Source of the DNA: a virus
Taxonomy: Duplodnaviria > Heunggongvirae > Uroviricota > Caudoviricetes
Direction: 5' to 3' (one strand)
DNA length: 18,860 nt
IMG/VR virus record: IMGVR_UViG_2526164632_000035
In this document: in pieces, positions 8,633-18,860 of the stretch
How the letters are laid out: each line of letters opens with the position of its first letter
How positions within the stretch are numbered: position 1 is the first letter of the stretch
Position numbers and translations under genes: made by a program
The notes under the pieces: model-generated
Seen by the model: only the letters and a program-made list of their open reading frames with translations
Told to the model about the DNA's origin: nothing
Database searches by the model: none

Positions 8633-9077
8633 ATCTCACACCTCCGGAAATCCCCGCTGAAGCCATCATTAATGCGACATCATCCTCGCTGACATCCGCC
8701 ACATCCGCAGACGATAAAATCTCACGCCCTCCGTCCCCACCAAACCGGACGCCTCCGGCAAGTCCTGCCGCTTTCTGCATCAGCATTTTTTCCTCATCCG
8801 GCATCTCCGTCTGCGCTTCCTCACGCCGGGGGGCAAGCAGACTGAAATCAGAGGGATGCATATCCGGATCGCAAAAAAACAGGCTGAGTACGGCGTACGT
8901 CAGCCCGGAAAAATGCATATCCAGTTGGGTATCGAGAAAATAATGCGTACGGTAAAAATGTCGCCAGTCGGCATATTCGGTGGATGTCATCCCGGCAAGC
9001 ATGGCGCGCCAGTCAGGCCTCCCCATCTCACGCGCCAGTCTGAGGGCAAAATTCAGCTCGCCGTCGAAGACTTTCCC
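8613..9077 (-). CDS. T: T-frame segment of the tail assembly chaperone GT, reached by programmed -1 frameshift from G
   Basis: The -1 frame is open from the slippery site to the stop at 8613..8615 and encodes …GKVFDGELNFALRLAREMGRPDWRAMLAGMTSTEYADW…, matching lambda gpT as recalled. Confidence 0.8.
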   Translation of the reverse strand, partial: GKVFDGELNFALRLAREMGRPDWRAMLAGMTSTEYADWRHFYRTHYFLDTQLDMHFSGLTYAVLSLFFCDPDMHPSDFSLLAPRREEAQTEMPDEEKMLMQKAAGLAGGVRFGGDGGREILSSADVADVSEDDVALMMASAGISGGVRYVPAGW

Positions 9078-9484
9078 GCAGAAAAATCATCATCAGTCAG
9101 CGCGTTATTTTTCGCCACTTCGGTGCTGTCAGTATCCGCATGAACAGCCCCGCTCATCCCGGACAGACGCAACACCACATCTTCCGCCCGGGCAATGGCA
9201 TCCGCAGGCCAGGTGGTGAGCACCTCCTGTTCGATCTGCATCACAGCCTCATTCATTGACGGTGATGCCGTTTTCTGCGGATGGTTATGCCACAGGGACA
9301 TCGCCACCAGAAACGCGCCGGTTCTGACGAGATCTTCCACGCTTACCTGCAGGTTGCCGCTGGATTCTGCCTGTTCTGCACGCCGTTTCAGGAGGGCAAG
9401 ATGCTCAATACGCTGCAGCGCAGACAATTCGGAAAGCGTGACGGACACACCGTTATATTCAAATTGTTCTGTTTTCAGAAACAT
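9053..9484 (-). CDS. G: Tail assembly chaperone (lambda gpG-like)
   Basis: Start chosen at the internal ATG (MFLKTEQFEYNGVSVTLSELSALQRIEHLAL…) with GGAGG 9 nt upstream. The track ORF's 24-aa N-terminal extension overlaps V and is rejected. Confidence 0.85.
   Translation of the reverse strand: MFLKTEQFEYNGVSVTLSELSALQRIEHLALLKRRAEQAESSGNLQVSVEDLVRTGAFLVAMSLWHNHPQKTASPSMNEAVMQIEQEVLTTWPADAIARAEDVVLRLSGMSGAVHADTDSTEVAKNNALTDDDFSAGKSSTAS
9071..9077 (-). promoter_or_regulatory. Programmed -1 ribosomal frameshift slippery heptamer G GGA AAG (G to GT)
   Basis: Minus-strand gcGGGAAAGtc lies 6 codons before the G stop. This is the same heptamer used at the lambda G-T frameshift site. Confidence 0.8.
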
Positions 9485-9497
9485 GTATGACCTCCGT

Positions 9498-10250
9498 TTA
9501 CCCTGCAGCGCCCGCTTCAGTAACGGTGACTTCAGCCACTGCGGCGAACTGACCATTTCCGCTCACCACAGGGATCTGCACCTTACCTGTCGCCACGCCG
9601 TTTACCGTAATTGTCATATCTTTCACACTAATGGTGGCTTTCGACGGATCGGCGGAAACCGCTCTGAACGTCTTGTCTGTTGCACTTTCCGGCTCAAAAG
9701 AAACCGTCAGGGTGGTTGTTTTCCCTTTTGCCACCGTACCGGATGTCGGCGTCACCTTAATCGCACTGACCGGCGTAATTTTGCTGCGTTCTTCCGCTAC
9801 AGAAGGTTTACCCACGTTAGTGACTTTCACCGTGCGGGTGATCACTTCTTTCGCCGTCACGGCCTTACCGATACTGCTGACCCAGCCACGAAACACATCC
9901 ACCGTGCCATTCGGGAAACGGATTTTATAGGCCCGGACATCGCCGCTTTCAAACCAGCCTATAAGCCCTTTCTGACCTTCTTCTCCCGGTTTCCAGGCCA
10001 GCGTAAAACTGGTATCTCCTGCAGACTTCTGCCCCTGCCCGGTCGCGGTCCAGTCCGCGTCTTCATCATCCAGGTAGTTATCATCGTAGGGTTCTGCCGT
10101 CATCTCGCCCGGCGTCAGATCCTTCACCTTAGCCAGTCGCAGCCAGTCATCGTCTGACAACGGGTTTGCATAGGCGTCACCCTGACCGTTATAAACCCAC
10201 AGGGTGGTACCGGCACCTTTTACCGGCTCAAGGGGATTTGGTGTTGACAT
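9498..10250 (-). CDS. V: Major tail tube protein (lambda gpV-like, with C-terminal Ig-like domain)
   Basis: 250 aa with similarity throughout ([79 protein letters not shown]). Confidence 0.9.
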
Positions 10251-10257
10251 ATCGTCC

Positions 10258-10653
10258 TCACATCTCGTATGTAATGGAATAAGTCAGATCCGCAGAACTC
10301 CATAACGCCATATCGTCATCACGACGATACTCATAGCCCTGCGTAACCATCGTGGTAATCAGGTCTGCCAGTGCCGGGATCGCAGTCATCGCCGGATAAA
10401 TCCGGCTTTCCATCCACGAATCCAGCTCCGAATCCGGTACCTGTGCTGGTAAAAACACCTCAATATGCAGTGTGGCCCGCCAGGTATCTGCATCCAGCTC
10501 TTCACCGGTATACTCTGCATCCGTCAGATAAACCGCGACCGCGGGAAAATCCTCTTCGTCAAAAACAACGGGGCGACCATCAAACAGCGTCGCCCCGTGT
10601 TCATGCAGCTCCAGTGCATCCAGCACTGCAGCACGGATATCAGTATGTTTCAT
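10258..10653 (-). CDS. U: Tail terminator protein (lambda gpU-like)
   Basis: 131 aa, [15 protein letters not shown]…[18 protein letters not shown]…[25 protein letters not shown]…YRRDDD…[13 protein letters not shown]. Start overlaps the Z stop. Confidence 0.9.
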
Positions 10654-11183
10654 CGTTTTATCGCAATCCTCAGTTGTTGTTTCAGCGCGTATGCCAGTTC
10701 TCCGGGCAGACGTTCACGCCGGATACGGTCAACATTCTCATCAAACGCCTGTTTCAGTGGGGCCGCCATCGGGATTTTCACCACATCAATGGGGTAACGG
10801 TTTTTCCCGACCACACGCTGCATGACATGCCAGCGACCATTTTTTAATCGCTGAATAAATGCCCGCTGATAACGATGCTGACCGGCTTTGAGTATGCTGT
10901 CCGGACGACGCCCCGGCATCCTGATCCCCAGCTTAATCACCGGGAGATCACCGCGGTTAACGATAATTCTGGCATTCGGATTTCTGACCGTGGCCCGTTT
11001 CAGTCTGGACCGTTCCTTAACCAGTTTCCGTCTCACCCTGGTTTCCCGGGCAACCTGTGATGAAGACTGATTAATCGCCGTTGTGGCCACGCGGTTAATG
11101 GTCATTGCAGAAGCCGCCGGAATGGCGTTTTTACGAACCCGGCTCAGATTATCAATCGCCTGCTCAAGCCCTTTTATCGCCAT
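10650..11183 (-). CDS. Z: Tail completion protein (lambda gpZ-like)
   Basis: 177 aa, MAIKGLEQA..NLSR…INRVA..AI.QS.SQVARET.VRRKLVKER.RLKRATV.NP.ARI.VNRGDLPVIKLG…AFIQ.LKNGRWHVMQRV.GKNRYPIDVVKIPMA.PL…RIRRERLP.EL.YAL. The central region appears shorter than I recall for lambda gpZ; not resolved. Confidence 0.8.
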   Translation of the reverse strand: MAIKGLEQAIDNLSRVRKNAIPAASAMTINRVATTAINQSSSQVARETRVRRKLVKERSRLKRATVRNPNARIIVNRGDLPVIKLGIRMPGRRPDSILKAGQHRYQRAFIQRLKNGRWHVMQRVVGKNRYPIDVVKIPMAAPLKQAFDENVDRIRRERLPGELAYALKQQLRIAIKR

Positions 11184-11198
11184 AATTTCACCCTGCGT

Positions 11199-11552
11199 TT
11201 ATCGTCGCCGGTTAACGGCGGGTGGTTGCCCACGGTTGAGCCAGAGATAACAGCTGCCCCCGTCATCCGGAGAAACACGATCCACCCAGAATATCTCACC
11301 ATTAATGGTCAGCGTGTCACCACGCCGCACAGCACGAACCGTATCCGTCCGCACAAATAATGACGGGCTGCTTCCTTCAATACGGACCCCGCTACCGGCA
11401 AATCCCAGCGACTCCGGATCGTCAAAAACCCCCTGAACTTCTCCGCCACACTGTGCCCCCGAGGTGAACTGTGCACAGAGCCCCATCACTTCAACAATCG
11501 TACTGTCCACCCCGGCAAGGGCAGCATCAAAGGCATTCTGAAAATCACGCAT
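11199..11552 (-). CDS. FII: Head-tail joining protein (lambda gpFII-like)
   Basis: Start chosen at the ATG giving MRDFQNAFDAALAGVDSTI…, which aligns with the lambda FII N-terminus. C-terminus FWVDRVSPDDGGSCYLWLNRGQPPAVNRRR. Start overlaps the FI stop (ATGCGTGA). Confidence 0.8.
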   Translation of the reverse strand: MRDFQNAFDAALAGVDSTIVEVMGLCAQFTSGAQCGGEVQGVFDDPESLGFAGSGVRIEGSSPSLFVRTDTVRAVRRGDTLTINGEIFWVDRVSPDDGGSCYLWLNRGQPPAVNRRR

Positions 11553-11919
11553 AAACAGCCATTCCGCCATCAACGTGTGTTTTTGCATCTGAGGACATAA
11601 TCAGAATCACCCGACCAACATCCGCAATCTCAACGGATTCCCCTGTTTCACCATCAATGCTACAGAGATGGAGGCAGGTCAGAACTCTGATGCGCGTTAA
11701 CGCACCGGATGTATCCTCACGAACATCATGAGCCGCGGTTTCCCGCTCCCGGATCACCGTATCCCCAACCTGAACATCCTCGCCGGATGACTGTATTTCC
11801 TCTTCCCATTCCGCCACCCGCTGCGCTATCTCTGCGGCACTCCCGGATATATCCGGCTCACGCCCCAGAATCAGGGCCAGTTCATCAAGCCGTTTCAGAT
11901 TTTGCTCTTTCGTTGCCAT
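11545..11919 (-). CDS. FI: DNA packaging protein (lambda gpFI-like)
   Basis: Start chosen at the internal ATG (MATKEQNLKRLDELALILGRE…AEIAQRVAEWEEEI…). Acidic mid-region. Position between E and FII. Confidence 0.7.
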   Translation of the reverse strand: MATKEQNLKRLDELALILGREPDISGSAAEIAQRVAEWEEEIQSSGEDVQVGDTVIRERETAAHDVREDTSGALTRIRVLTCLHLCSIDGETGESVEIADVGRVILIMSSDAKTHVDGGMAVYA

Positions 11920-11970
11920 ATCAGCCCCCTGTGAAAAAAGACACGGGGGCATTTCGCCCCCGCTCACGGA

Positions 11971-12998
11971 TTATTTCACCTGTACCACCACAAACTCATC
12001 CGGGTCCGGCAACACCATCAGCGGCGCAGACTGCGTCATGGTAAATTCACGGGCGGGATCCCCCACCGTCAGCCAGTGTTTCGGATAACGGGAAGAGGCC
12101 ACCACACCTTCGGACAACGCCTGCGCATCCTGAATGGCACCGTAACAACGGATCCCATCTGCAGCAGTATTCCCCAGAACCAGCATGCCCTCCGGCAGAT
12201 AACGTTTTTCGATACCGTCTTCTGCTATATAAGACGTTTTCGCCACCACAATGGCCAGATCGCCGTAATACCCCTTGAAGGACACCACTGCGCCCAGATC
12301 TTTCACTGCCGTTTCGAGTTGAGAATTTGAACCGCGACGGGTATCCAGTTTTTCGCGGAACAGCTTAAAACCATTCAGAAGACGCCAGACGGTACCGTCC
12401 ATAATGGCAATATTCACAAGACCGCTGGCCTGGTCGCAGTAGAGGTCAAGATCATGTGTAGGATCGAACGTGTCACGATCCTGTTTTGACCACTCCTTAC
12501 CACTACCCTGAGTGATGTTATTCTTCGTCGACCTGCCAAAATCGACCTCAATTTTCTCGAACTGGTCTCCTTCCATCGTGTATTTGCCATACAGCACGGC
12601 ATTCACCGCCTGCATTTCTTCCACCTGGACAATGGCGTGCTCTTCCTGTTTGAGGTTATCAGTGATGATACGCAGACGACGGTAGGCCGGGTCGTTCAGC
12701 TGAGCCGGATCTTCACCGGGAAGACGCTCAACCGCCTGCTGGTAATTAAATTCGTGTTTCGGCTTGACGTAGCCCGGACGTAACACGCGGGTTTCACCAC
12801 CACGATGACGCAGCACTTTTCCTTCAACAACCGGGGAGACATAGGCCGCCACCGGCGTTTTCCAGTAATTTTGTCCAGCATCACCTCTTCGGTATGGAAA
12901 TTCACCGTACGGCGGAAAAACAGCTCCAGAAACAGCGCACGAAATTTCACTTTTTGTTCGGTATAACCGAGTAACTGGCGGGTCGTAAACAATCCCAT
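11971..12998 (-). pseudogene. E: Major capsid protein (lambda gpE-like), split by a frameshift at the homopolymer 12858..12861
   Basis: N-terminal frame from ATG 12998 (MGLFTTRQLLGYTEQKVKFRALFLELFFRRTVNFHTEEVMLDKITG) and C-terminal frame (…VAAYVSPVVEGKVLRHRGGE…PGYVKPKHE…VQVEEMQAV…KLDTRRGSNSQLETAVKDLG…GDPAREFTMTQSAPLMVLPDPDEFVVVQVK) both match consecutive parts of lambda gpE but sit in different frames. The junction is at minus-strand ggAAAAcg. Confidence 0.8.
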
Positions 12999-13055
12999 AA
13001 ATCAGTTCCTTTCATTCAGAAATCAGTCAGGCCACCGCGGTGGCCTGATAACGTG

Positions 13056-13403
13056 TTACGGCAGCGCCGCGTGACTCAGGGCACTGCCGGCAAAGGCATT
13101 TGCCTTTTTGTGTTCATCCACACTTTCAGGCCAGCGGATTGCCTCCGTCGCAAAGGTCCCCGACTTGTAATAGGTCAGTACCGTCTCTGTGCCTTCAAGC
13201 GGCAGTACCAGTATGCCAACTGCACTACCGGCTTTCTGTCCGTCCCAGACCACCAGTTTCCCGCTGGCTTCATCCAGCATCAGGGGCGTCAGTGCCGGTG
13301 TTGCCGAGGAAATCCCGCTGCTGCCTGTGGCGGTATGAGCCGGATCATTACCGGCAAAAATACGTACTTCCGCACGCTGTTCAGTGATGGTTTTCGTTAC
13401 CAT
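13056..13403 (-). CDS. D: Head decoration protein (lambda gpD-like)
   Basis: Start at ATG 13403 (MVTKTITEQ…) with AGGAGG 8 nt upstream. NDPAHTATG…TPLMLD…KLV.WDG…AVGIL…TYYKSGTF…WPE…AFAG. Confidence 0.85.
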   Translation of the reverse strand: MVTKTITEQRAEVRIFAGNDPAHTATGSSGISSATPALTPLMLDEASGKLVVWDGQKAGSAVGILVLPLEGTETVLTYYKSGTFATEAIRWPESVDEHKKANAFAGSALSHAALP

Positions 13404-13438
13404 ATTGTAAAACCTCCTGTTGATGATCAGCACTGACT

Positions 13439-14945
13439 TCATGGCATGGCCATGAGCATTTTCACGTCCGCATCACCGTCTGCTGACGTCTGTGGCACGC
13501 CACCCTGTACCGCTGCCGGTGAATGGTTCGCCATGATGCGTTCAAACAGGGCGGTTGTGGATGCAGAGACCGGTTCTGCCTTACCTGATCCCGCAGCCAG
13601 CACAGCCCGGGCGCTCTCCACAGTCATTCCCGGGCAGGCAGCCAGCTGTTCAGCCTGCGCCTCAGCCCCTTTTGCCTCATCCAGTGCCATGATCTGATCA
13701 CGGAGTGAGGGTCCGGCATCCGCCTGCGGTGAAGCAGCCAGGATCGGGCGGGCTTTTTCCACCGTCATCTCCGGCATCGCCGCCAGCGTTGCCGCCAGTT
13801 GTTCACGACCGTTCGCTTCTTCACACGCCATAATGCGATCGGCTTCACTCTGCGTGGATGCCACCGGCTGCTGCGGTGCCGCCGCGGCCAGAATCGCCCG
13901 GGCCTGTTCAACGCTCATGCCCTGTTGTCCTGCCAGCATCGTGGCAAGCTGTTCACGTCCTTTCGCTTCCTGGCATGTCAGGATCCCCATCACTCGCTGG
14001 TTCTCCTGCGCGGCGGCTTCCGTTGCAGTTAATTGCGGCATAGTGCCTCCTCTGACATTACTGTTCAGCGCCGTGGCCATCACACTGATGGCATCCGACG
14101 CATTGACTAATTCATCCGCCAGCCCGGCATCAATGCCGGACTGACCTTCAAAAACGGCGGCCTCTGTTCCCGTGACGGCATCAACAGACAGACCGGTAAA
14201 CATGGCCACTTTTTCGGCAAACATCCGGCGCGCCGCATCAATGCGCTGCTGCATGTCCTGGCGAACCTCTGCCGGTAAGGCTTCAAACTGATTGCCATCC
14301 ACCTTGTGCGCCCCTGAGTAAATCAGCGTGATATCCACACCGGCCTGCGCCAGATGACCGGCATAGCTGACATGGCTCATCATCACGCCAATGGAGCCGA
14401 TACGGGATGTCTGGGTAACCAGCCGTCGGGAGCAGGCCGATGCCAGCAGCATGGCTGCAGAACAGGCCGTGTCATTGCACAGTGCCCAGACCGGCTTCTG
14501 CTGACGGAGGCGGTAAATCATGTCAGCGCAGTCAAACGCGCCGGCGGCCTGCCCGCCCGGACTGTCAATGTCCAGCAGTACGCCCCGCACCTGGCTATCC
14601 GCCATTGCCTGCTGAAGACAGGCGACAATGCCGTCATAGCCAGTCATTCCGGAAAATGGCCGCATCCCCCCCAGCCGGTGCACCAGCGTGCCGGTCACCG
14701 GCAGTACCGCAATACCGTTCACCACCCGGTAAACACGGGCCGGTCGTTTACCTCCGGCCATGTACTCGTCCGTTTCAGCCAGCATTCCGGGAGCATCAAG
14801 CTGTACCTGCTGCTTGTGGTACCGAAAGACTTGCTGCCCCCATCTCGCGCCCGAGCGCGCAAAAGAAAACCCGCGCATAGGCGGGCTCCAGAAGCAGCGG
14901 TTCATTGAATGCTGCGGCAATAATGTGTGAAAGATTACGTCTCAC
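13439..14945 (-). pseudogene. C: Head maturation protease and scaffold (lambda gpC/Nu3-like), with a frameshift near 14796..14825
   Basis: The true N-terminus is in another frame: GTG at 14943..14945 with AGGAGA 9 nt upstream gives VRRNLSHIIAAAFNEPLLLEPAYARVFFCALGREMGAASLSVPQAAGTA*, matching the lambda gpC N-terminus, with a stop at 14796..14798. The rest (…GKRPARVYRVVNGIAVLPVTGTLV…GMTGYDGI…LLDIDSPGG…KPVWALCND…LVTQTSRIGSIGVMM…) is in the track ORF frame 13439..14920. Confidence 0.75.
13537..13996 (-). repeat. Three tandem, diverged copies of an approximately 150-bp unit encoding an approximately 50-aa motif in the Nu3/scaffold part of C
   Basis: Protein copies: RVMGILTCQEAKGREQLATMLAGQQGMSVEQARAILAAA…; RIMACEEANGREQLAATLAAMPEMTVEKARPILAAS…; QIMALDEAKGAEAQAEQLAACPGMTVESARAVLAAG…; followed by a partial RIMANH…. 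Lambda as recalled has one copy. Confidence 0.7.
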
Positions 14946-16528
14946 GTGGTGTTGTCTCCTCTTCCGGCCTGCGACTCTCCGCTATCTGCTGCTGATACGC
15001 CTGCGCTATCCACACCGGACGTGAGAGTCCGGCTTTTTCCCGCTCTGCAGATTCCCTGACCTGCTGGCGGAAAATGTCCTGATAATCCTCGCCCATCAGC
15101 GCCAGCTCTTTCTCATACGTGCTCAGTCCGGCCTCAATGCGCATCACTGATTCCTGAACCTCCTTGAGCCCGTCAATGGCCATTCTTCCGGCTCCAATCC
15201 ACTCAGCCCGTGACCAGGCTGATCGCGCCTGATAAAAATCAAAACGTGCCCGTGGCGGACGAATAATCCCCCGAAGAAGTGCCTCTTCCAGCCAGCAGGA
15301 AAACATCTGCGTGGCCAGCCGGGACGCAATAAATTTTCGCCGCCCCATAAAATAGCGCCACGACTCATTGGCGGATGCGCGGGCACTTGAATAACTGACC
15401 TTCGAGTAATCACGGGACAACTGTTCGTAGGAAACGCCAAGACCGGCGGCGATATACCGCAGCAGCGCCTGTTCAAGCGCCGAAAATCCATTGTCTGAAT
15501 CCTGCGCGGTCTGAAGTTTCAGATCATCACCGGGGAAAAGGTGCGGAATTTTGACACCGCCCAGCGTCACGCTATTCGTGTCATACCAGGTGGAGAACTT
15601 ATCCAGAATATTAATAAGCGGATTATCCTTCTGCCCCTGCGGCGCACCGGCGATATATTCAAAGGCCTTTTCGGTATCAAGGTCACTTTCAATCGTCGCT
15701 GCATACATCGCCTTCACTATGGCCGACTGAAGCTGTGTTGCCTGCAGGGAATCGAGCATCTTCAGCCGTTCCATTACGCTGTAAAACTGATTGGCCCCAC
15801 GGGTCTGCCCGTCCTCCACCGGCTCGAAAATATGCAGCATGGCCGGACGCCCGGTGGGAAGTTCACGCGGGATCCGTTCCCATCGTCCACTCCCAGAGAA
15901 CGGAAAATCATCCTCACAGATATGGTACGCAACGGCACGACCATATCGATCGACCTCCACACCGGCCCGCAGAAAACGGTTCCCCATACCGTGTCCTGGC
16001 GTGTCCACCCGTTTCGGACTCACGGCTTTAAAACGCGTACGAAACAGTTGCGTGCTCTCCGTATCCCAGACCGGCTGCACAAAGATTTTCGCCGTTAAAC
16101 GCATGAACGCCCACACCTTCACGAATAAATTCCGTAAACGTGCGTTTCTCTTCCACGTCGATCTCGCCAGACATCCCTTCGGCGTATTCCGACCAGGCCG
16201 CCTCCACCTCATCGACAAAACTTTTTGCCGCAGTCTCCCGCATCCCCAGCCAGCGCCAGTTCGGACGGTAGCTGATCAGAAACATATGCCCGACAATATG
16301 ATCCTTATGCAGGGCCACCGCATTGGCCGCTATCCCGTTATTGCGCACCAGATCATCTGCCCGGGCATTCCCCAGACGCAACGCAGGCAGCAGGGCTGCA
16401 TCGGCACTCTGCGCCGGTGGCAACCACTCCGCCATTTGCCCGCCAAATCCTGCACCGCCACCGTTGTAGCTGAGGCTCTCCCGAAGCGGAACGCCGTTCA
16501 CATCAATCAGGACAGGCGTTCGTTTCAT
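14935..16528 (-). pseudogene. B: Portal protein (lambda gpB-like), split by a frameshift at the homopolymer 16086..16089
   Basis: N-terminal frame from ATG 16528 (MKRTPVLIDVNGVPL…GGGAGFGGQ…NARADDLVRNNGIAANAVALHKDHIVG…HAFNGEN) stops at 16028. C-terminal frame (…IFVQPVWDTESTQLFRTRFKAVSPKR…FEPVEDGQTRGAN.FYSVME…QSAIVKAMYAATIES…GLGVSYEQLSR…) runs to the stop at 14935. Both match lambda gpB. The junction is at minus-strand gAAAAtc. Confidence 0.8.
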
Positions 16529-16731
16529 AACCTCACTCCCAGCGGACGACGGCGACGTCGGGTTGTCCCCAGTACCGACTCCGCATCATTGATCGCCCGG
16601 TTAAGCTCATCCAGAGAAGCCGCCGTATATTCAATTCTGCGACCATCTTTCTGGACAGACACCACCCGTTTACCGGTTAATAAATCAAGGCGCGCCTGAC
16701 GCAGCGCCTGCAGTTCAGCGACTGTAACCAT
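16525..16731 (-). CDS. W: Head-tail connector protein (lambda gpW-like)
   Basis: 68 aa, same length as lambda gpW (…LTGKRVVSVQKDGRRIEYTAASLDEL…RRRR). Stop overlaps the B start (ATGA). Start overlaps the A 3' end. Confidence 0.85.
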   Translation of the reverse strand: MVTVAELQALRQARLDLLTGKRVVSVQKDGRRIEYTAASLDELNRAINDAESVLGTTRRRRRPLGVRL

Positions 16732-18643
16732 TCACTCCTCCGGACAGCTTCGCTGCCAGTTCTTTCAGGGTTGGCCGGGTCGTCTCTTCTTCCCGGGATT
16801 TTGCCAGTACAGCCAGATCAAGCTGCCAGCGTTGCACGGACACACGTAATGCCGCGTAGGCATACACCAGGCAGTCCAGCGCTTCGTTACGCCGCTTTTT
16901 GTTATCCCACAGCAGACGCATCTTTCCTTTTTCCCACTTCTCCACCAGCTCTTCCGCCACCAGTTGCTGCGCCTCTGTCTGCGAAAAAATCTCCGGATCA
17001 TCAGGAAAACGGATGGCATACGACGTGGCTTCATCCGCAGGCGTGGGATCGGCTTTCATACGGGCATAGAGAATTTCTTTTGCGGTGTCCGTCCCCACTT
17101 CGCACAGATACACGCCCCGCTGATTGCGGGTTTTTGGCATGGTGATCACCGGCTTGCCATAAACAGATGCACCTTTTACCGGCAGCACCCGGAAAACACC
17201 GTGTTTTTTTGACCTCTGATAGACAATTTCGCCATCGATCCCCCCGGTGTCCCAGCAGACACGGGAAATGGTCATTTCGGTTCCGTCTGCATGGCGGTAT
17301 TTTTTGTTGATCGCCACATCCACACGTAACAGCGTCTCTTCCTCATCGGGACGCCCCATAATGATGATTTTATCCACCAGAAAGGCTTCCTCTCCCGGAG
17401 CCCATCCCCAGACATACATCTCAAAACGGTTTCGCTGCGAGTCAATGCCCGCCGTCAGATAAACCACCCGGGAAGGCACCGCAGCCGTGTAACGCACAAC
17501 CTTATCCATCAGCACCTGGTGATCGAGTTTTTCGCCCACGGCCTCTTCCCAGGTCTCGCCCAGCGTGGTGTTCACAAAGGTTTTCAGGCCGTTGGGATCT
17601 TTCAGTGCATCCAGCCAGTCATAGACAATCTGTACCCAGGTGGTGAACGGACTGTACGCCGTCCAGATATGAAATGTGATGGAGCGCGGCGGCGGAATTT
17701 CATTATCCGCGGCGCTGAAAAACGTCAGACCGTCGCGGGTCCACATGCCCGTGTTTTCGCAGATCCACCGCCCGTTGCTCTGGTCAAGCTCAGACTGATG
17801 GATCACGCAGCCATGATGTTCACAGAGGTAGAAAACGCTTTCGGGGCTGTCCTTCTCCCATTTAAGGCCAAAAGGCGTGGACTCATCGCCAAATTTCAGA
17901 TACTGCGCCTCCCCACAGTGCGGGCAGGACACATAAAAACGCATGAAATGCGCCGACTCGTTGGCCGCTTTTTCGATCTGGCAGGAGCCTTTTATTTTAG
18001 GCGTCGAGCCGCGAATGGATTTTGGCCATACCGAGCCCTCAATACGCTTATCCCCCAGCAGGGTTGGCGAGCCCTCTTTTTCGACATCCGGCTCGAACGA
18101 GGAAAGTTCGTCATAGCAGACCACGTCCACGGATTTTTCACGGTAGTTTTTTGCTGCCGCACCACCCAGGCACCAGAAGCCCACCCCCGATGAAAAGCGT
18201 TTCAGCGTGAGAGTATTGTCACGATGTTTACGACCCAGCCACGGGGAAAGATCTTTCAGGCATGGCACGTCCCGAATCGTCGCCTCCACGTGAGACTTCA
18301 TAAAATCTTCAGCGGCAGAATCCGTGGGCTGAAAAAGCAGACTGTTTCGGGATTTATGCTCAATAAAATACCCGGCGACTCCCAGCAACATCTTTGTATA
18401 GCCAACACGGGCAGATTTAATCAGATTAACAGTGCGGATCTGATCATTCCCCATACTGTTCATGATGGCGATCTGGAACGGCAGCGTTTTCCATTCGCCG
18501 TCACCGTATGAGGATTCTTTCGGCAGATAATAATACTGGTCAGCCCATTCAACTGCCGTCATCGGTACAACCCTGACCAGAGGCTGCAGCGCAACCGAAA
18601 CGGCGGCCACCATATTATTCAGTTGTTGCTCTGATATATTCAT
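16715..18643 (-). CDS. A: Terminase large subunit (lambda gpA-like)
   Basis: Start chosen at the internal ATG 18641..18643 (MNISEQQLNN…), aligning with lambda MNIS…; about 643 codons. Similarity throughout (TAVEWAD.YYYLPKES, KSARVGY.KMLLGV, KRFSSGVGFWCLGGAAAKNYREKSVDV, GDKRIEGSVWPKSIRGSTPK, HFMRFYVSCPHCGE.QYLKFGD, FHIWTAYSPFTTWVQIV, LTAGIDSQ, CWDTGGID, KGASVYGKPV, WDNKKRRNEALDC). Confidence 0.92.
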   Translation of the reverse strand: MNISEQQLNNMVAAVSVALQPLVRVVPMTAVEWADQYYYLPKESSYGDGEWKTLPFQIAIMNSMGNDQIRTVNLIKSARVGYTKMLLGVAGYFIEHKSRNSLLFQPTDSAAEDFMKSHVEATIRDVPCLKDLSPWLGRKHRDNTLTLKRFSSGVGFWCLGGAAAKNYREKSVDVVCYDELSSFEPDVEKEGSPTLLGDKRIEGSVWPKSIRGSTPKIKGSCQIEKAANESAHFMRFYVSCPHCGEAQYLKFGDESTPFGLKWEKDSPESVFYLCEHHGCVIHQSELDQSNGRWICENTGMWTRDGLTFFSAADNEIPPPRSITFHIWTAYSPFTTWVQIVYDWLDALKDPNGLKTFVNTTLGETWEEAVGEKLDHQVLMDKVVRYTAAVPSRVVYLTAGIDSQRNRFEMYVWGWAPGEEAFLVDKIIIMGRPDEEETLLRVDVAINKKYRHADGTEMTISRVCWDTGGIDGEIVYQRSKKHGVFRVLPVKGASVYGKPVITMPKTRNQRGVYLCEVGTDTAKEILYARMKADPTPADEATSYAIRFPDDPEIFSQTEAQQLVAEELVEKWEKGKMRLLWDNKKRRNEALDCLVYAYAALRVSVQRWQLDLAVLAKSREEETTRPTLKELAAKLSGGVNGYSR

Positions 18644-18860
18644 CGAGTAAATCCGGTAATTTATCCCCTGCCCGCGCACACTGATTTGCCCCCTTCGCAA
18701 TAAGGGTTTTCAGATGGTCAAGATGGCGCGGTGTTAAATCAGGAAACTGTCGCTGCATGGATAAAGGGATGGAATCAAGCGTACTGGATAACGCCATTGC
18801 CAGCTTACTGAGGGCAAAAATACAGAACCCGGTGTCAATAAGTTTTCCTTTGACTACCTC
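18615..18860 (-). CDS. nu1: Terminase small subunit (lambda Nu1-like), 3' part only; the gene continues beyond the right edge
   Basis: The minus-strand frame is open from the window edge (…EVVKGKLIDTGFCIFALSKLAMALSSTLDSIPLSMQRQFPDLTPRHLDHLKTLIAKGANQCARAGDKLPDLLDEYIRATTE*) and matches the lambda Nu1 C-terminal third. Its 3' end overlaps the A start by 29 nt. Confidence 0.8.
   Translation of the reverse strand, partial: EVVKGKLIDTGFCIFALSKLAMALSSTLDSIPLSMQRQFPDLTPRHLDHLKTLIAKGANQCARAGDKLPDLLDEYIRATTE

Follow-up and report, generated by a model that had tools for sequence, protein, structure and literature searches.

The split prohead protease gene of an Escherichia coli DEC12C prophage is most likely a draft-assembly consensus error

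The closest described counterpart of the gene analyzed here is gene 5 of phage 21 (UMO75420.1; CPT_21_05, capsid protease/scaffolding protein), which shows 98% DNA identity with our sequence and has the same GTG start codon, the same ribosome-binding site (RBS), the same 11-nt overlap with the portal stop codon and the same nested scaffold ORF of 603 nt. In phage 21 this gene is one ORF of 1,506 nt. Also near are the proteins annotated by PGAP as 'S49 family peptidase' in lambdoid prophages of E. coli (WP_112081588.1, WP_096944793.1). With gpC and Nu3 of phage lambda (NP_040584.1, NP_040585.1) the gene has in common the Peptidase_S49 domain, the position between B and D and the nested scaffold ORF. 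The window, by which we mean the whole stretch of 18,860 nt that was analyzed, differs from phage 21 and from the prophage relatives in that an extra base at position 14813 splits the ORF, whereas the relatives are unsplit; once this base is removed, the gene equals that of phage 21 in length.

Gene C in its prophage

The window is the terminal part of contig AIHC01000061.1 (75,063 bp), which belongs to the draft assembly GCA_000250255.2 of E. coli DEC12C, and the contig stops at window position 18860, within the head-module repeat. The DEC12C draft was probably made by 454 pyrosequencing, and the drafts of the DEC collection would date from the pyrosequencing era. On the minus strand of the window lies the late region of a prophage of the lambda/phage-21 type, whose effector cargo is nleB2/nleC/nleH/nleF (T3SS). 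Around the head genes treated further below, the following features were located:

1-981: nleB2 pseudogene, interrupted by an internal stop (ORF 1-732 and, upstream of it, a short piece)
1319-3907, plus strand: IS679 (IS66 family) in the place of J (tnpA 1319-1969, tnpB 1969-2316, transposase 2336-3907)
after E in gene order, minus strand: FI, FII, Z, U, V, G, T, H, M, L, K and a truncated I
13056-13403, minus strand: decoration gene D
16525-16731, minus strand: W
16715-18700, minus strand: terminase A

The closest genome is the complete one of E. coli O111:H2 strain 12A (NZ_CP077479.1), whose syntenic prophage has the same IS679 for J and the same internal stop in nleB2, and in which B, C and E are intact. 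As IS679 replaces the tail-tip gene J, the prophage was already defective, and since this replacement and the nleB2 stop are common to DEC12C and 12A, the defect is genuine.

At window position 3938, 353/354 nt of 12A (locus 4939-5291 of its syntenic copy) are missing. IS679 thereby loses its right end and the tail-assembly gene I its 3' part, with the result that ORF 3828-4382 continues from I into IS sequence. No obvious microhomology was seen at this junction, and the gap could be either a real deletion or a mis-join.

Gene C itself is placed between portal B and the decoration gene D, and consists of the following parts:

14955..14960, minus strand: RBS, AGGAGA, matching the annotated RBS of phage 21 CPT_21_05
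14796..14945, minus strand: N-terminal frame of gene C, with GTG at 14945-14943, 45 correct codons, 5 wrong ones (AAGTA) and TGA at 14798-14796
14813..14814, minus strand: lesion, reading CAAG, with an A/G polymorphic position at 14814 and the extra G at 14813
13439..14812, minus strand: body of gene C (S49 prohead protease and C-terminal scaffold part), in frame with ORF 13439-14920
13439..14041, minus strand: nested Nu3-like scaffold ORF in the frame of the C body, with ATG at 14041-14039 behind GGAGG, 200 aa

The frame that opens at GTG 14945-14943, 11 nt before the stop of portal B at 14935 (a start/stop overlap), translates as VRRNLSHIIAAAFNEPLLLEPAYARVFFCALGREMGAASLSVPQ, then AAGTA, and then reaches the TGA. 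ORF 13439-14920, by comparison, encodes 493 aa from a TTG, and its first ~35 residues (LPQHSMNRCFWSPPMRGFSFARSGARWGQQVFRYHK) come from translating that DNA in the wrong frame. An earlier sequence-only reading of this DNA had called the W/R/C-rich N-terminus of the TTG-started ORF implausible, and had proposed instead the GTG at 14943..14945, with its AGGAGA, a gpC-like N-terminus and a stop at 14796..14798. Both points are borne out: the first stretch is an out-of-frame reading, and the second frame was confirmed by translation and by BLASTP homology that begins at residue 3.

Deletion of base 14813 yields an ORF of 501 aa, equal in length to gp5 of phage 21. In this corrected product Peptidase_S49 (PF01343) was found at residues 146-293 with an E value of 7.2e-35, and BLASTP against lambda gpC gave 54% identity over 412 aa (E 5e-143; query 3-372, lambda 6-414), a homology that includes the 45 N-terminal residues lying in the separate frame. 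The Ser of its CSA motif aligns with lambda Ser166, which is presumably the catalytic residue of gpC, and the corrected protein is 62 aa longer than gpC by way of a repeated C-terminal scaffold segment. It lies 1 aa from copy c2 and 5 aa from copy c1 of the corresponding gene in 12A. The nested Nu3-like ORF is intact, untouched by the lesion at 14813; its 603 nt are the length of the phage 21 scaffolding CDS (5309-5911), and the layout is that of lambda nu3. As regards the uninterrupted ORF expected of the gpC family, the gene is split at 14813 here and unsplit in all relatives. On this sequence evidence, the true gene C is very probably a single ORF of 501 codons, encoding an S49 prohead protease with a nested Nu3-like scaffold.

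The extra base and other private indels

The indel was placed by aligning the region to gene 5 of phage 21, to PhiR57_1 and to copies c1 and c2 of the 12A prophage gene. Where the relatives read CCACAA-CAGCAGG, the window reads CCACAAGCAGCAGG; the single additional base, at 14813, is G when read on the minus strand and C on the plus strand. The sequence-only reading had expected a +1 change near gcagcagg, within 14796-14825, and had proposed pairwise alignment to related C genes as the means of placing it; that alignment puts the base inside this interval and fixes its position at 14813 exactly. At the neighboring position 14814, copy c1 of 12A has A (CAA) and copy c2 has G (CAG), and the window has A and then G. 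Its CAAG thus consists of the c1 and c2 alleles in tandem. Gene C, 1.5 kb long, contains ~20 differences between c1 and c2, and on this basis we put at ~0.007 the probability of such a tandem arising at one of these sites from a random 1-nt insertion in C. Compared with c2 the insertion amounts to A1>A2, and compared with c1 it changes no homopolymer. Inspection of CCACAAGCAGCAGG by eye revealed neither a slippery X XXY YYZ heptamer nor a known +1 site.

Occurrence of the insertion was then compared with that of the uninterrupted sequence. Of 5,426 complete E. coli genomes, 1,689 matched an 81-nt query centered on 14813, at 2,622 places in all, and the best places all matched at 80/81, so that the extra base is missing from each. 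In an exact-pattern scan of IMG/VR the insertion allele was found in 0 contigs and the in-frame sequence in at least 120, with CAA in 98 and CAG in 22 of the C sites among the matches listed; the same kind of scan in the GTDB species representatives gave no match to the insertion allele. A 601-nt query around the site was matched at full length by 18 phage records, phage 21, ev017, PhiR57_1 and Lambda_4C10 included, of which 17 span 600 bases and one 596. The two-frame arrangement was sought in intact relatives, where its presence would have spoken for a genuine feature, and it was absent from all of them; it is therefore not conserved or programmed.

The proteins deposited from this region point the same way in their distribution. 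The 49-aa N-terminus of C (EHX32462.1) is deposited on one contig only, that of DEC12C, and the same contig is the only one with the 166-aa piece of portal B (EHX32464.1) and, for capsid E, the piece of 293 aa (EHX32459.1). A 448-aa C body, present on 13 contigs, was considered as a marker of the same +1 and rejected, 11 of these 13 contigs being cut near the start of the gene. One complete E. coli genome, CP028590.1, has a lesion of its own in C, a G5>G4 change at ATGGGGGCA, at about codon 36. This deletion lies ~25 nt upstream of the window's 14813 site, and it accounts for the 448-aa 'S49 family peptidase' that was deposited for that genome from an internal Met.

Gene C is not the only head gene affected. 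Three of them (B, C and E) are broken, the lesions in B and E having been absent from the earlier reading, and in comparison with phage 21, PhiR57_1 and 12A there are four private one-base indels within 3.3 kb. Besides the one in C, they are located as follows:

14935..16528, minus strand: portal B, split into ORFs of 166 aa and 427 aa; one A added in the run 16086-16089 (A3>A4)
13409..13412, minus strand: T-run between the RBS and the ATG of gene D, non-coding; T4 here, T5 in relatives
11971..12998, minus strand: major capsid E, split into ORFs of 100 aa and 293 aa; one A lost in the run 12858-12861 (A5>A4)

Among the IMG/VR matches listed, the portal run is A3 in 99/99, the D spacer is T5 in 61 and T6 in 1, and the capsid site has C plus A5 in 88/88. 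This C refers to position 12864, 2 nt from the A-run, where the window carries a private synonymous C>T in E; the best match to the capsid site is 80/82 among 2,899 places in complete E. coli genomes. Correction gives a portal B of 530 aa and a capsid E of 342 aa, each 100% identical to c1 of 12A, and none of the corrected B, C and E proteins shows further decay, that is, extra missense changes or stops with respect to c1 and c2.

Allele mosaic and indel background relative to strain 12A

The head module has four matching places in 12A, two of which, the syntenic copy c1 and copy c2, were included in a three-way alignment with window positions 11900-18860. Copy c1 corresponds to 2155003-2174216 of NZ_CP077479.1 and c2 to 1912064-1929523, and the two differ by ~8% in the tail region around gene Z/FII (window ~11000-11900). 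The alignment contains 223 variable columns, in 213 of which the window matches one of the two copies (c1 in 117, c2 in 96). The other 10 are private and comprise 4 columns of alignment-end noise (18852-18855), 4 indels and 2 substitutions (15895 and 12864). The T at 15895 is a natural allele, found in phage 21 and PhiR57_1, and we infer that it came from another copy of the head module. The matches fall into blocks: c2 from 18840 to 16454, c1 from 15775 to 14642, c2 from 14462 to 13591, and c1 from 13450 onward. The first c1 block contains c2 alleles at 15343 and 15340; elsewhere, 16558 is a further isolated single-site switch. Next to the lesion, 14708 G, 14666 G and 14642 T (minus strand) are c1-specific. 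Such a block mosaic, ending at a contig end, suggests a chimeric consensus of collapsed copies.

Window positions 1-12,800 differ from c1 by six substitutions (private 12864 included) and by no single-base indels. The four private indels are thus clustered in 3.3 kb, with 0 in the neighboring 12.8 kb. In the region of the major tail gene, the window has GGGAAA at 9915 where 12A has GGAAAA, a difference which may be a miscall of the run-length type or the allele of another copy.

A unique flank of 8.9 kb on the same contig, outside the window (nleH, nleF, yodB, zinT, msrPQ, hiuH and hprRS), was compared with 12A, giving 0 substitutions and 2 one-base deletions. One of these is a T8>T7 change in nleF (L016 12679), and the other an A7>A6 change ten bases before the stop of hprR, a conserved regulator (L016 20325), the called product of which has 253 aa in DEC12C vs 223 aa in 12A. 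Two deletions with 0 substitutions point to a general indel-error problem in the draft. The two assemblies agree exactly in the internal stop of nleB2, the frameshift of nleH and IS679 for J; hence real lesions recur across independent assemblies, whereas the six one-base indels do not.

Between hiuH and hprR (L016 18283-19613), an IS3-family element with rve/HTH_Tnp_1 ORFs is inserted in DEC12C but not in 12A. This extra IS, together with the 353/354-nt difference beside IS679, means that DEC12C and 12A are not strictly the same strain.

Origin of the two-frame arrangement

In all likelihood, as far as these alignments can tell, the two-frame start of C is a consensus error of the draft assembly and a property of neither the phage nor the bacterium. 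What marks an artefact of this kind is, as judged from sequence, present at the locus: a multi-copy repeat with mixed alleles, an error that can be derived from those alleles, and similar errors in the background. DEC12C would carry several near-identical copies of the head module, and reads of at least two of them (c1 and c2) would have been merged into one consensus, so that, between genes A and E, the contig would alternate c2, c1, c2, c1. In codon 45 of C, where c1 has CAA and c2 CAG, the consensus would have kept the second A plus the G, giving CAAG and a spurious +1. The step behind this may have been a mismatch between the piled-up copies that was aligned as two adjacent gapped columns, or else per-flow averaging. 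The private indels found in B and E, in the C-D spacer and in nleF and hprR would then be ordinary miscalls of homopolymer length in the same assembly.

The sequence-only reading had leaned toward a real mutation on the grounds that no long homopolymer is involved. Its frames, its GTG start, its gpC-like N-terminus and its +1 site all stood, but this lean did not: the base sits on an A/G difference between co-resident copies, with both alleles in tandem, in a patchwork region at the end of a draft contig that has five more private one-base indels.

A real frameshift private to the DEC12C lineage would consist of a G (or A) inserted at codon 45/46, cutting the protease to a 49-aa peptide and leaving Nu3 intact, as part of the decay of a defective, effector-carrying prophage. 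Reinitiation at the ATG that encodes M46 of ORF 13439-14920, 11 nt past the stop, could at most give an N-terminally truncated protease. Several observations agree with such a mutation. With J lost to IS679 and with nleB2 and nleH as pseudogenes, the head genes are not selected for virion production, and inactivating head-gene mutations would be cost-free in a defective prophage; moreover, the site is outside a long homopolymer, and CP028590 provides an independent frameshift in C (G5>G4). Nevertheless, we regard this explanation as unlikely. The syntenic B, C and E genes of 12A are intact, with 0 substitutions in the 8.9-kb flank, and the C, B and E lesions were not reproduced in that independent assembly. 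Six indels vs 0-6 substitutions make an unnatural mutation spectrum, and one of these indels affects the conserved hprR on the same contig. The inserted base copies the allele of a second prophage copy, the change is unseen in >2,700 other copies (complete E. coli genomes plus IMG/VR), and the corrected proteins are without further decay. That the +1 in C and the frameshifts in B and E are all real and private to DEC12C appears about as unlikely. If they were, there would be three independent head-gene knock-outs within 3.3 kb while the sister strain keeps the genes intact, which could mean that capsid production of a domesticated prophage was silenced quickly, perhaps under selection.

Lambdoid prophages within one genome recombine, and the c1/c2 block structure resembles conversion tracts. 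The mosaic could on these grounds be genuine, a product of gene conversion between co-resident prophage copies, with the indels as by-products of recombination or repair. Gene conversion, however, transfers alleles that already exist instead of joining two of them end to end; it leaves unexplained both the homopolymer indels in unique DNA and the isolated single-site switches (16558; 15343/15340), and the contig terminates within the repeat. We consider it very improbable. Programmed frameshifting, which lambda-like phages use elsewhere (G/GT), or a separately expressed N-terminal peptide has nothing in its favor except the two overlapping frames, and can be excluded in practice, as there is no slippery site and no conservation in relatives: the ORF is continuous in phage 21, ev017, PhiR57_1, 12A c1/c2 and at least 120 viral contigs, and the arrangement is confined to one draft contig.

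A consensus error has its main bearing on annotation hygiene. The deposited annotation of DEC12C splits C, B and E (EHX32462.1, EHX32464.1, EHX32459.1 and others), and these fragment proteins are no evidence for prophage decay, for a novel small ORF or for recoding. A single-nucleotide difference between collapsed repeat copies would show up as a one-base insertion, an error mode that does not depend on homopolymers and is recognizable by checking a suspect site against the paralogous copies in a finished sister genome. Were the mutation real instead, it would add a further frameshift to a defective prophage, a commonplace event.

In its kind, the lesion resembles known consensus errors of draft genomes, among which are private one-base indels in A/T runs and single-nucleotide differences between copies rendered as insertions. 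It also resembles the consensus of a collapsed repeat, with chimeric alleles where a multi-copy prophage module meets the end of a contig. The nleH and nleB2 pseudogenes of the same prophage have, on paper, the same type of lesion; theirs, however, are reproduced in 12A, and those of C, B and E are not. The frameshift at 14813 occurs in this assembly only, and gene C otherwise fits the lambda gpC / phage 21 gp5 family as one of its ordinary members, with no new biology.
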